Shown: piece after piece, positions 4,956 to 16,240 of the stretch
Position numbering within the stretch: position 1 is the first letter of the stretch
Layout of the letters: every line of letters begins with the position of its first letter
Source: a virus
Taxonomy: Duplodnaviria; Heunggongvirae; Uroviricota; Caudoviricetes
Length of the DNA: 16,240 nt
Virus record (IMG/VR): IMGVR_UViG_3300025011_000002
Reading direction: 5' to 3' (one strand)
Translations under genes and position numbers: made by a program
Notes under the pieces: generated by a model
The model's database searches: none
Seen by the model: the letters and a program-made list of their open reading frames with translations, nothing else
What the model was told of the DNA's origin: nothing

Positions 4956-5627
4956 ATGAGAGAAATTAAAAATTATATTAATGAAAAATTTGGAAGACTA
5001 ACAGTTGTGAAATATAGTCACACTGATAAAAATTATAAAAAGTATTATATATGTTTATGTGATTGCGGAAATATTACTACTGTATCTATAGGTAATTTAA
5101 AAAATTGCATAAAATCATGTAGATATCTTAAGAAGGAATTACACTTAAAGAGGAATATTATCCATAATTTAAGTAATACTAGATTTTATAAAATACATAA
5201 ATCTATGAAAGAGAGATGTTTAAATAAAAATAATAAAAATTTTAAAAATTATGGAGGAAGAGGAATTACAATACAAAAAGACTGGTTGAATTTTAATAAT
5301 TTTAAAAATGATATGTATGAATCATATTTATCTCATATTGAACAATATAGCGAAAAGCAAACAACCATAGATAGAATAGATGTTAATGGCAATTATGAAT
5401 TAAATAATTGCAGATGGGCGACTTGTAAAGAGCAAGTACACAATAGAAGGAGACAAAAGAGTCAAAAAGAATTTAAAGCAATATCTCCCGAAGGGATAGA
5501 ATATATTAGCGATAATCAAATGAAATTTGCCAAAGAGCATGGATTATATTTTACTTATATAAGTAGATGTTTAAATAAAAAATACGGTTTTAAATCGCAT
5601 CATAAATGGACTTTTGAGTATATTTAA
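4956..5627 (+). mobile_element. Free-standing HNH-type (His-Me finger) homing endonuclease gene, antisense to the operon
   Basis: N-terminal FGRLTVV..CLCDCG; middle YKIHKSMKERC.N.NNKNFKNYGGRGITI; nuclease-like core TIDRIDVNGNYELNNCRWAT..EQ..NRR; C-terminal NUMOD1-like HTH (FAKEHGLYFTYISRCLN). SD AAAGG 7 nt before the ATG. It is the only well-supported plus-strand gene. Confidence 0.88.
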
Positions 5628-13262: not shown

Positions 13263-13865
13263 TTATTTTACCTTTTTATATTTTATTGCAAAATCTACAG
13301 CTTCTAAAAGTTTTCCAGAATCAGTAAGAGGTTGGCTGTGTCCTTTTTTCCAAATTTGGTCAGCTTGACCTTCTTTATCGCTGTTATCTTTTAGTTGATT
13401 AAAAACACTACCTTTAAATTCAGATATTTCTTTTTTAACAGTTTCAGAACAATACTTACCAATTTGAGTCAACATATTTTTAACATTACTACTATTGGAC
13501 ATTAATAGTTTTATTTGTATTTTAGCTACACCAGGTATATCTTTTTTAATATTAGTAAAAGCGTATGTAAAGAATGGTCTTGAAGGAATATGGATTACTG
13601 TTCCTGGTTTTATTCTCCAGACTCTTTCTTCTCCTGTATGGTTTTTAAATCTAACCACACCGCCTTTATGAACATATGTTCTGCCTTCTTCAATGATTCT
13701 TGCTAAATGACCTACACTAATTCTTCCCCCAGATTTAGAAATAGTCCATTTATCATTATCAATTCTTCTGGCTTTATGTCCAAATATACCAAATCTAACT
13801 TCGGAATTATTTAGTTGTTTGAGTTTGGCTATTTTATTTTCAAGCCCTTTTTTATTAAGTTTCAT
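13263..13865 (-). CDS. Tail completion / virion morphogenesis protein (HK97 gp10 / Mu gpG-like)
   Basis: Motifs LARIIEEG...IPSRPFF and KKGHSQPLTDSGKLLEAVDF. Confidence 0.82.
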   Translation of the reverse strand: MKLNKKGLENKIAKLKQLNNSEVRFGIFGHKARRIDNDKWTISKSGGRISVGHLARIIEEGRTYVHKGGVVRFKNHTGEERVWRIKPGTVIHIPSRPFFTYAFTNIKKDIPGVAKIQIKLLMSNSSNVKNMLTQIGKYCSETVKKEISEFKGSVFNQLKDNSDKEGQADQIWKKGHSQPLTDSGKLLEAVDFAIKYKKVK

Positions 13866-13874
13866 TGATATAAA

Positions 13875-14315
13875 TTATTCATTTGGTTCGTAAAATGTAT
13901 CATATGTATTCCTTTTAAATGAATTTTTAACAATATATCCGTCTTCTTGAGCATCATTATTGTCATCAATATCCATTTCATACACACCACCAAAATATGC
14001 TTCTAATATAGAATCTGCTGATAGTCCAGATATTAACTGGTTTTCTAAATCTTTAGCTAAATCTAAATAATATTTATGCTTACTTCCTTCTCTTATAGTT
14101 ATATCATCTATTGATACTTCTTGAGAGGAACCTTGCATAAATTTCATTGCTAAAGTTCTACATATTTCTATAGCAGTTCTTGTTATATTATTATCATTTC
14201 TCCCAAGATAAAAACTTAATTCTTCATCTTCAAAAATATAATTATCTATATCTTTATCTTGAATAATTAATCTTATTTTTCCAATATTTGTTGATATATC
14301 ATAAGTAAAGGCCAT
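13875..14315 (-). CDS. Head-tail connector / adaptor protein
   Basis: N-terminal TYDISTNIGKIRLIIQDKD...IFEDEEL motif and helical A.EICRTLA.KF; first neck gene after the capsid cluster. Confidence 0.8.
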   Translation of the reverse strand: MAFTYDISTNIGKIRLIIQDKDIDNYIFEDEELSFYLGRNDNNITRTAIEICRTLAMKFMQGSSQEVSIDDITIREGSKHKYYLDLAKDLENQLISGLSADSILEAYFGGVYEMDIDDNNDAQEDGYIVKNSFKRNTYDTFYEPNE

Positions 14316-14339
14316 TATTATTCTCTATTATTCTCTATT
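14316..14339. repeat. Tandem repeat of TATTATTCTC (2.4 copies)
   Basis: Read directly: 14316-14325, 14326-14335 and a partial TATT at 14336-14339; spans the stop of the upstream gene and the RBS region of the connector gene. Confidence 0.85.
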
Positions 14340-14874
14340 CTTCTGCTTTAAAAGCTACTCTATCAAGAAACTCTCTAAATTTAGGCAACATTTCTAATTT
14401 TATATTAGAGTTATGAGATTTTACTTCAATCTCAAATTCACTACTAATAGCTAATTTTAAATCAGTAAAAGAAAGATTATATTCTTTAGCTAAAGCACCA
14501 TATTTAATTGGTTTTACTTCTTCAGTTTCTACAATTTCTTCTTGTATAACTTCTTCTTTTATTTCTACAATTTCTTCTTTAACTTTCAATTCTTGTTTTA
14601 AAGAACCACAAGCAACAAATTTTTCTGCCTGTTTAAATGTTAAAAAAGAATTTACTTTCTCATTAAAATCGTAATAAACTCCATCAATATAAGTTCTTCT
14701 ATTAGCATAATATTCATATTCTTCATCATTATATGGAATTATAATATTTGCTCTTATTAAAACTCTTGTTCTTGGAGATTCTACATATATGAATTTGTCA
14801 CCTTGTTTATAACTAATTCCACAATAAGGAAAATCTTTATTTACCTTATATACGAATTTACCTTTACTTTTCAT
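14335..14874 (-). CDS. Post-capsid accessory protein: two N-terminal repeats, an acidic linker and a C-terminal IF2-N-like domain
   Basis: SD AGAGG. Repeats YKVNKDFPYCGISYKQGDK and YYANRRTYIDGVYYDFNEK; linker EEIVEIKEEVIQEEIVETEE; C-terminus IKYGALAKEYNLSFTDL...IEVKSHNSNI. Confidence 0.75.
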   Translation of the reverse strand: MKSKGKFVYKVNKDFPYCGISYKQGDKFIYVESPRTRVLIRANIIIPYNDEEYEYYANRRTYIDGVYYDFNEKVNSFLTFKQAEKFVACGSLKQELKVKEEIVEIKEEVIQEEIVETEEVKPIKYGALAKEYNLSFTDLKLAISSEFEIEVKSHNSNIKLEMLPKFREFLDRVAFKAEE

Positions 14875-14891
14875 AAAACCTCTTTAATATT

Positions 14892-14922
14892 AAAATGTGA
14901 GGGAAATAATTTTTCCCTCACA
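14892..14922 (-). terminator. Intrinsic terminator after the major capsid gene
   Basis: Perfect 11-bp inverted repeat TGTGAGGGAAA (14896-14906) / TTTCCCTCACA (14912-14922) with a 5-nt loop, followed on the minus strand by TTTT then an AT-rich run. Confidence 0.85.
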
Positions 14923-14936
14923 AATTAAATTTTATC

Positions 14937-15884
14937 CTATATAACATCATCCAATAAAAGGGCAGCATCGGCACTTTGAAGAATATGTGTGAAGAACTGT
15001 TCAACTCTGATAACATCAGATTTAATTTTTTCTTCTCTATATTTAAAGATACCAATACCATTAGATGTTGTTCCTTGAGCCATATCTTCATAAAGAATTT
15101 TAGCATATCCAGCAGAACCTATTGTATTTCCACCTTTAAGATATAATAAAGCTTTATCAGTAGCTATTTGGGAAGGAGCTTGATTAGCATCACCTTCTTT
15201 GCTCGCATTAGTAACAGCTTCCATTACTTCGATATTTTGAATACCAAATAATTCTTTTAAAACAGCTAATTTAACTGTTCTAAGTTGATTATCAGGCAAT
15301 CTTCCTATAATATCAGAGTGATTTACTAATTCAAGATAAACATCTTCTGAAAGTAATAAAGAATCAGGGTTTACACCAATTTTATCTTTAACAACTTTTT
15401 TAAATGCCCACATGTTATTAATAGGGTCGCCACCGCTTGAAAGCCATTTTGTGAAGTCAGCTCCACCAGTTTTTGTAGTTCCAGCACCAGCAGCGAATAG
15501 ATTAGCATAAGCATATCTTTCATATCTTCTCATACCATTAAGCATGAATTTGTCTGCGATGTCTTGTTCTACAGAAACAGGAACGATTTGTCTTTCTCTA
15601 TCATCAATAGCTTCTTCAAGACCGTAATCTTTTGTTAAGAAGCTATTGTTTCCATAGTTGCTTTTTGTTCTTTTGTATTCAGAACCAGGGTTTCTTTCAA
15701 CGATTTCATCTGTTTGAAAATCTCTGGCGTTAAATGTGTTATAATTTCCATTAGGTCCATCAACTTTTACAAAAGGGAAAGCTTTTAAAGCTACGAATGT
15801 GTCCAATTGAGGTCTTAAAGCTTCTGCTGCGGAAACTGTATAGACTTTTTGGAAAGTTGCCTTAGTTATTCCGTCAATACTCAT
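14937..15884 (-). CDS. Major capsid protein (HK97 fold, lambda gpE-like family)
   Basis: 315 aa; AFPFVKVD...Y..F...RNPGSE...F...DYGLEEAIDD.E; G.DPIN...KIGVNPDSLLLS..VY..L.NH.DI; follows the decoration gene and precedes a terminator; SD AAGGA. Confidence 0.92.
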   Translation of the reverse strand: MSIDGITKATFQKVYTVSAAEALRPQLDTFVALKAFPFVKVDGPNGNYNTFNARDFQTDEIVERNPGSEYKRTKSNYGNNSFLTKDYGLEEAIDDRERQIVPVSVEQDIADKFMLNGMRRYERYAYANLFAAGAGTTKTGGADFTKWLSSGGDPINNMWAFKKVVKDKIGVNPDSLLLSEDVYLELVNHSDIIGRLPDNQLRTVKLAVLKELFGIQNIEVMEAVTNASKEGDANQAPSQIATDKALLYLKGGNTIGSAGYAKILYEDMAQGTTSNGIGIFKYREEKIKSDVIRVEQFFTHILQSADAALLLDDVI

Positions 15885-15914: not shown

Positions 15915-16240
15915 TTACTTAACGTGTAAATCTTTTTTATAAACTAATACTAACTGGTCTACTGCTGTAGCTGCTTCATAAGCAATAGCAATAACTTTAT
16001 CATCACCAGTTCCACCAGCAGCAACTAATTTTCCATCTGCATCTGTTTTAAGTTCTGTTCCTACTGCGAATGTTTCGCCAGCTTTTGCTTTAACAAATCC
16101 ATGAACACAAACGGTCATAGAATAACCATTACCTTCTGGAACTTTTGTTATAATAGCTTCTGCTTGTTCGTTAGCACCAGCTTTAACACATGTTGGTAAT
16201 GTTGAATTTGTAGCACCAACAGAAAGCTTAACTGCTAAAC
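15915..16240 (-). CDS. Capsid decoration / cement protein (DUF2190-like), 5'-truncated by the window edge
   Basis: The frame of the 67-aa track ORF is open to the window end: ...LAVKLSVGATNSTLPTCVKAGANEQAEAIITKVPEGNGYSMTVCVHGFVKAKAGETFAVGTELKTDADGKLVAA...IAIAYEAATAVDQLV. The V.AG.A.AVG..L..DADGK motif is characteristic. Confidence 0.85.
   Translation of the reverse strand, partial: LAVKLSVGATNSTLPTCVKAGANEQAEAIITKVPEGNGYSMTVCVHGFVKAKAGETFAVGTELKTDADGKLVAAGGTGDDKVIAIAYEAATAVDQLVLVYKKDLHVK

Follow-up and report, generated by a model that had tools for sequence, protein, structure and literature searches.

An IF2_N-like domain behind tandem DUF7210-like units in a post-capsid phage protein

The P0001 gene and its product

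We analysed P0001, a 179-residue protein encoded on the minus strand of an uncultured groundwater phage (Caudoviricetes) whose DNA is IMG/VR record IMGVR_UViG_3300025011_000002. The whole stretch of 16,240 nucleotides, with a G+C content of 30%, is referred to here as the window. The gene lies downstream of the major capsid gene, from which it is separated by a gap of 62 nt. The original prediction had read a peptide near the end of this protein as a domain like the N-terminal domain of IF2 (IF2_N), placed on the protein encoded right after the capsid gene. Translation assigns the peptide to residues 121–172 of P0001 (nt 14514–14359, minus strand), and the match of the preceding gene to phrog_1005 confirms its position. 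P0001 and the capsid gene are laid out as follows.

14937..15884, minus strand: major capsid protein gene, 315 amino acids (aa); phrog_1005 'major head protein', E 5e-39
14335..14874, minus strand: P0001 gene, an open reading frame (ORF) of 179 aa, by translation, with two DUF7210-like units, a flexible linker and an IF2_N-like domain
14725..14856, minus strand: DUF7210-like unit 1, residues ~7–50, a small beta-beta-beta-alpha-beta unit
14584..14724, minus strand: DUF7210-like unit 2, residues ~51–97
14515..14577, minus strand: flexible linker, residues 100–120, with 10 D/E and 1 K; predicted local distance difference test score (pLDDT) <50 at residues 100–119
14353..14514, minus strand: IF2_N-like domain, the feature originally flagged, forming the C-terminal part of P0001

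Relatives of P0001 are few. An exhaustive search of 1.8 billion representatives returned only four, and a word-index search added one more. Further word-index protein searches recovered the same few relatives only, family-alignment scans of IMG/VR and JGI metagenome contigs confirmed no relative, and tblastn and megablast comparisons with 50,697 phage records revealed no DNA or protein similarity to the window. The family has five full-length members (P0001 and P0005 to P0008), which are 30–41% identical to one another and have their layout in common; identical copies of the gene occur in metagenomes, on contigs that reach 123 kb.

The C-terminal domain resembles the N-subdomain of IF2

Sequence profiles point to IF2_N (PF04760; gathering cut-off 25.3 bits) as the nearest Pfam family of the C-terminal domain (C-domain). 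P0001 alone has no Pfam match, even at E ≤ 10, and its comparison with PHROGs was equally uninformative. IF2_N is the top Pfam match of its homologue P0006 (E 0.0024, 18.0 bits, profile positions 2–50 of 53), and equally of a hidden Markov model consensus of the five C-domains (E 0.0021, 18.2 bits); for both queries it is the only plausible match at E ≤ 10, which neither MerR nor HTH_17 is. As a reference set we used genuine Pseudomonadota IF2 genes, located with PF04760, which supplied 35 N-terminal copies of the domain. Aligned with these 35 IF2 N-termini by hhalign, the five-sequence C-domain alignment reached a probability of 75% (P 2.6e-5) over 50 columns, and it scored 27.0, whereas 100 column-shuffled templates had a median of 7.6 and did not exceed 13.0. 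The alignment with the second, pre-G-domain copy of IF2 is partial and covers the first 23 columns (P 2.7e-4).

A phmmer search of all PDB sequences with the consensus listed six Thermus thermophilus IF2 entries only (E 0.58–0.85, each non-significant). All six alignments span residues 3–53 in one register and have the LAKE and KSH.S..EE motifs in common. IF2 is unlisted in the PDB searches made with real sequences or alignments, at the top of which stand acyl carrier protein and FtsY (E 0.01–0.7); both were judged to be chance matches.

Structural analysis of the C-domain leads to the same family. AlphaFold run on the P0001 sequence alone gave a model with a pLDDT of 32, which is useless; with the five-sequence alignment as input, the mean pLDDT is 75.8 and the model reveals two folded domains, an N-terminal half (residues 1–99) and the C-domain (residues 121–174), on either side of a disordered segment (residues 100–119). 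The C-domain is built in the order strand-helix-helix-(strand)-strand-helix, with a strand at 124, helices at 125–131 and 136–147, a bridge at 157 and a last helix at 163–172 (pLDDT 76–81 over residues 121–174), a topology that agrees with the published description of the IF2 N-subdomain (PMC4611024). The model superimposes on the IF2 N-subdomain with a root-mean-square deviation (rmsd) of 1.3 Å over 53 residues, and the two are ~21% identical in sequence.

In the PDB as a whole, IF2 is the best structural match of the C-domain: five IF2 entries head the second-look list, and the Z score of IF2 exceeds that of the best winged-helix match by 1.5 units. The next-nearest structures are MerR-like winged-helix DNA binders. 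Foldseek, run on the AlphaFold model along the lines the original prediction had suggested, retrieved the IF2 chains 4b43 (prob 0.95) and 4kjz (prob 0.89) at rmsd 1.6–1.8 Å with non-significant E-values, and none of its E-values against PDB or BFVD was significant. The ESM Atlas was searched with both its own model and our AlphaFold model, and the neighbours of residues 118–179 are almost only IF2 or IF2_N clusters, at template-modelling (TM) scores of 0.65–0.78 depending on the query.

The profile, pairwise-sequence and structure routes are three independent lines of evidence, and they share one register. We conclude that the C-domain of P0001 probably has an IF2_N-type fold; its resemblance to IF2_N exceeds chance, yet stays under the formal family thresholds. 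The pattern originally proposed is accordingly upheld as the top Pfam match, the best PDB structure and the shared LAKE/KSH register, but not as a family assignment above the 25.3-bit cut-off.

Beyond phage DNA, IF2_N matches were also seen in bacterial open frames other than infB, namely G021:C3:969258-969389 (E 1.6e-7, 469 aa) and G055:C37:12225-12374 (E 5.9e-4, 385 aa), which indicates that the module exists outside IF2 in bacteria too.

The N-terminal half is a tandem pair of DUF7210-like units

The consensus of the N-terminal half matches DUF7210 (PF23843; cut-off 27 bits) in two stretches with 23.6 bits (E 3.6e-5), and P0007 matches it at the first unit with 18.6 bits; P0001 alone has no Pfam match to DUF7210. 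Because the DUF7210 match falls into two stretches and the N-domain shows internal similarity between its halves (P 3.5e-4), we identify the N-terminal half as a tandem pair of DUF7210-like units. Predicted structures of DUF7210 proteins in BFVD (P74-26 A7XXR7, Pseudoalteromonas phage B8b and ctMBu2) match the N-domain with prob 0.98–0.99 and rmsd 2.0–2.4 Å over 42–47 columns, at E-values of only 0.16–0.28, and a DUF7210 cluster of the Atlas does so with TM 0.45–0.48.

The Atlas neighbours of residues 1–99 are clusters of viral or prophage proteins with DUF7210, with Rho_N plus Ribosomal_L9_N and DUF7210, with YqbF_HeH, or with HeH/SAP. This bears out the original expectation that the slot behind the capsid gene usually holds Rho_N, HeH or SAP domains. 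Since these neighbours carry DUF7210, Rho_N, HeH, SAP or YqbF_HeH, the C-terminal module appears to be swappable, and in P0001 the IF2_N-like module replaces the Rho_N, HeH or SAP modules of the related proteins.

The post-capsid position of DUF7210 itself rests on two reference phages. In Thermus phage P23-45, gp90 is a DUF7210 protein (27.5 bits) encoded directly after the major head protein gp89, and in Vibrio phage VP882 a 54-aa ORF matching DUF7210 (22.1 bits) directly follows the capsid-fusion gene. Alignments of our family with P23-45 gp90 and with ORF088 of Pseudomonas phage KPP23 by hhalign were weak or null; ORF088, also a post-capsid gene, resembles unit 1 weakly (P 0.06).

The linker and a split allele

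As originally predicted, the IF2_N-like module is tethered behind another domain by a flexible linker, for which the low pLDDT of the intervening segment speaks. The linker had also been described as acidic. This holds for P0001, but it is not a feature of the family: length and charge of the linker vary, and while three members have an acidic one, the proteins and their linkers are basic in two of the five.

One metagenomic contig, L148 (JGI 3300025309), carries DNA that is identical to the window across both domains. Within the linker (L148:395-540; window 14527–14554), 27 nt are replaced by ~104 unrelated nt, and the gene is split into two ORFs in different frames. The first encodes the N-domain as a 110-aa protein (P0009) and the second a 79-aa protein (P0004), in which the IF2_N-like domain follows 15 new leader residues and a new start codon is used. 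The replaced segment matches nothing in other parts of the window, nor in related loci. Of the two forms, the fused one occurs on 21 contigs, the split one on a single contig. If the split allele is real, the two halves are separable modules and the linker is a joint that tolerates recombination.

Neighbouring genes and signals

Around P0001 and the capsid gene, the following genes and signals were annotated.

15915..16238, minus strand: cement/decoration protein gene, upstream of the capsid gene and cut by the window end; PF09956 Phage_cement_2, E 4.2e-5, 24.3 bits (cut-off 24)
14896..14922, minus strand: terminator-like hairpin, an 11-bp stem with 5 GC pairs followed by a T-run, between the capsid stop codon and the P0001 gene
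14879..14885, minus strand: Shine-Dalgarno-like AAAGAGG, read from the sequence, 4 nt upstream of the ATG at 14874
13875..14315, minus strand: 146-aa gene downstream of P0001, probably a head-tail adaptor or connector; phrog_1732, E 1.7e-10
13263-13865, minus strand: Neck1/tail-completion gene, after the 146-aa gene; phrog_222 'tail completion or Neck1', E 6.8e-20

The remaining DNA of the window carries a myovirus morphogenesis module, likewise on the minus strand: the adaptor-like gene and Neck1/tail completion come first, followed by genes for the tail terminator, sheath, tube, chaperone, tape measure and baseplate. The sole plus-strand gene, for an HNH endonuclease (4956-5627; phrog_374, E 1.5e-56), sits between baseplate genes. 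At the homologues P0007, P0005 and P0008 the neighbouring genes are arranged in the same order as at P0001, and the genes for P0005 and P0007 lie, like that for P0001, immediately downstream of a major capsid gene. The cement gene (15915-16238) also has a weak match to the E217 gp24/Pam3 gp6 family, and PHROGs labels the gene itself 'head scaffolding'. A function of P0001 as the head decoration protein was considered and rejected, as the cement gene upstream of the capsid gene already fills this role.

A terminator scan gave, in the region covered, two terminator-like matches, which are one palindromic hairpin seen on both strands, against 0.5 ± 0.8 in shuffled sequences. This strong hairpin ends before the ribosome site of the P0001 gene and probably acts as an attenuator, by which the amount of capsid protein relative to downstream proteins would be set; its location upstream of the P0001 gene suggests that P0001 is expressed at a lower level than the capsid protein. 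At the other end of the gene, an 11-nt direct tandem repeat (TAGAGAATAA twice, then TAATG; 14317–14340) spans the P0001 stop codon and the region of the next gene's ribosome site.

P0001 as a candidate adaptor of the phage head

Because the IF2_N-like module sits on a head-gene protein of a common type, a role in capsid or packaging is likelier than one in translation. The explanation that we put first, and hold tentatively by analogy with a known system, is that P0001 may be a modular head-cluster protein of a widespread post-capsid class with a bridging or chaperone role like that of lambda gpFI. The DUF7210 units would dock on the prohead or capsid, in the manner of the head-binding domain of gpFI, and the IF2_N-like winged-helix module would contact DNA or the terminase-DNA complex. 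P0001 would then bridge the capsid and the DNA or terminase during DNA packaging or head completion.

Several observations weigh against this explanation or the assignments beneath it. With five members, the family yields a shallow profile and a shallow model. The 25.3-bit cut-off of IF2_N is reached by neither P0001, P0006 nor the family consensus, and the 27-bit cut-off of DUF7210 by no family member or consensus. The C-domain of P0001 is charge-neutral, with 10 K/R against 10 D/E and an isoelectric point of 6.8, unlike the usual strong DNA binder. As to gpFI itself, no family member matches Packaging_FI (PF14000), hhalign finds no sequence similarity between the family and lambda gpFI (P 0.77), and the structural match of P0001 to the gpFI C-domain (2LSM) is at noise level. 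Finally, the split variant implies either that the covalent tether is not strictly kept or that the variant is defective.

The positional and domain evidence for an adaptor is shared by a second, unlikely explanation, in which P0001 is an accessory of the capsid surface: the DUF7210 units would anchor it on the mature head, the IF2_N-like domain would be displayed outward as a ligand-binding tip, and the protein would have no part in packaging. Atlas neighbours in which the same small domain precedes enzymes or adhesin-like repeats (a glycosyltransferase and Flg_new) are consistent with such a display. The phage already encodes a dedicated cement protein, however, the terminator-like hairpin upstream of the P0001 gene argues for sub-stoichiometric synthesis, and the post-capsid ORF088 of KPP23 is not among the ORFs annotated 'virion protein' in that phage.

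A further explanation concerns the identity of the C-domain, which could be a generic winged-helix DNA binder of the MerR/Xis/gpNu1 type whose likeness to IF2_N is convergent or goes back to the superfamily level. That every IF2_N sequence score falls below threshold and that PDB profile searches with real alignments listed no IF2 would fit this reading. We nevertheless consider it rather improbable, given the 1.5 Z advantage of IF2, the closer superposition (rmsd 1.3 Å against 2.2–2.9 Å) and higher identity (21% against 8–14%), the fact that IF2_N and not MerR or HTH_17 is the sole plausible Pfam match at E ≤ 10, the register shared by sequence and structure alignments, KSH motif included, and the hhalign P of 2.6e-5 against IF2 N-termini. 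We note that SCOP presumably places the IF2 N-subdomain in one 'putative DNA-binding domain' superfamily with MerR, Xis and lambda gpNu1; on that assumption, the IF2_N and winged-helix readings are nested rather than opposed.

Less probable still is the mimicry of IF2 that the original prediction had offered first, in which the module would attach to the ribosome or to a partner of IF2 and shift late translation to phage messages, or would couple translation to capsid assembly. Within P0001 the IF2_N-type fold is the sole point in its favour, next to reports that the IF2 N-terminal region anchors the factor to the ribosome (PMC4611024) and that phages carry ribosomal-protein domains (PMC6375957). 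Against it stand the place of the gene in a head-to-neck operon, rather than among genes that act early or in translation, and the capsid-linked class to which its N-domain belongs. Equivalent proteins elsewhere bear Rho_N, HeH or SAP modules, none of them a ribosome ligand, ~21% identity gives no sign of recent host mimicry, and the compact IF2 N-subdomain is without an established specific ribosome contact (PMC4611024). We regard as just as improbable the wider proposal that P0001 uses folds of the translation apparatus throughout, two bL9-N-like units and an IF2-N-like module, to bind ribosomes or rRNA and thereby skew late initiation or link the translation of the capsid gene to head assembly. 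The other half of the original prediction, repurposing of the module to bind DNA or the head, is more likely than IF2 mimicry. Recent capture from a host infB gene was rejected on the same low identity to the solved IF2 N-domain.

In sum, P0001 occupies a slot whose genes are among the commonest unexplained genes of phages. We found no paper on an IF2_N-type domain in a post-capsid phage protein, in line with the original remark that this architecture is not known from earlier descriptions. With P0001, an IF2_N-type module joins Rho_N, HeH and SAP among the modules that can be attached to the DUF7210 anchor, and this makes firmer the view that the slot codes for a modular device similar to lambda gpFI, a 'capsid anchor plus small nucleic-acid-type binder'. 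The case also places the IF2_N fold outside translation factors and near MerR-like DNA binders, which may help to explain the role of the subdomain in IF2. For annotation, the lesson is that an IF2-like match in a phage head module should not be taken for a translation factor.

Comparison with known systems

MerR-like winged-helix domains (pSK1 Par 8csh, RacA 5i41/5i44 and MerR regulators) are close to the C-domain in structure but fit it worse than IF2 does, with rmsd 2.2–3.4 Å, 8–14% identity and no Pfam match. With the N-subdomain of IF2 (residues 2–54 of 4b3x/4kjz; Escherichia coli 1ND9), the C-domain shares the fold and, in register, the LAKE and KSH.S..EE motifs. A flexible linker connects the N-subdomain with the remainder of IF2, and P0001 has its module attached in the same way. 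In contrast to IF2, P0001 carries the module at the C-terminus of a 179-aa phage head protein that has no GTPase; the module scores 18 bits against the 25.3-bit cut-off at ~21% identity. The function of the compact N-subdomain is poorly defined in IF2 as well (PMC4611024).

The DUF7210 proteins (P23-45 gp90 and the VP882 54-aa ORF) resemble P0001 in their post-capsid position and in the small beta unit, the latter likeness resting on sub-threshold profile matches and on matches between predicted structures. P0001 differs from them in carrying two tandem copies of the unit, to which a linker attaches a further C-terminal domain, and its family scores 18.6–23.6 bits, under the 27-bit cut-off of DUF7210.

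We take YqbF of a Bacillus subtilis prophage (2HJQ) to be a further protein of comparable build, in which a small beta domain and a small helical HeH/SAP-like domain are joined by a flexible linker. In sequence, P0001 has no detectable similarity to YqbF or to gpFI. Similarly, in lambda the gene FI, which encodes the DNA-packaging chaperone gpFI (PF14000; C-domain 2LSM), lies directly after the capsid gene E, as the P0001 gene does after its capsid gene, and the linker between the two domains of gpFI is presumably flexible. The helical N-half of lambda FI (L143:1703-2101), a protein that matches Packaging_FI, has a weak SAP match (E 0.0018, below cut-off), which fits the pattern of a small helical binder combined with a head-binding beta domain. 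gpFI forms a bridge from the capsid to the terminase-DNA complex and accelerates the turnover of terminase (PMC13595911). P0001 and gpFI are thus alike as products of post-capsid genes with two domains and a flexible linker, while in P0001 the domain order is reversed and the helical module is IF2_N-like instead of SAP/HeH.
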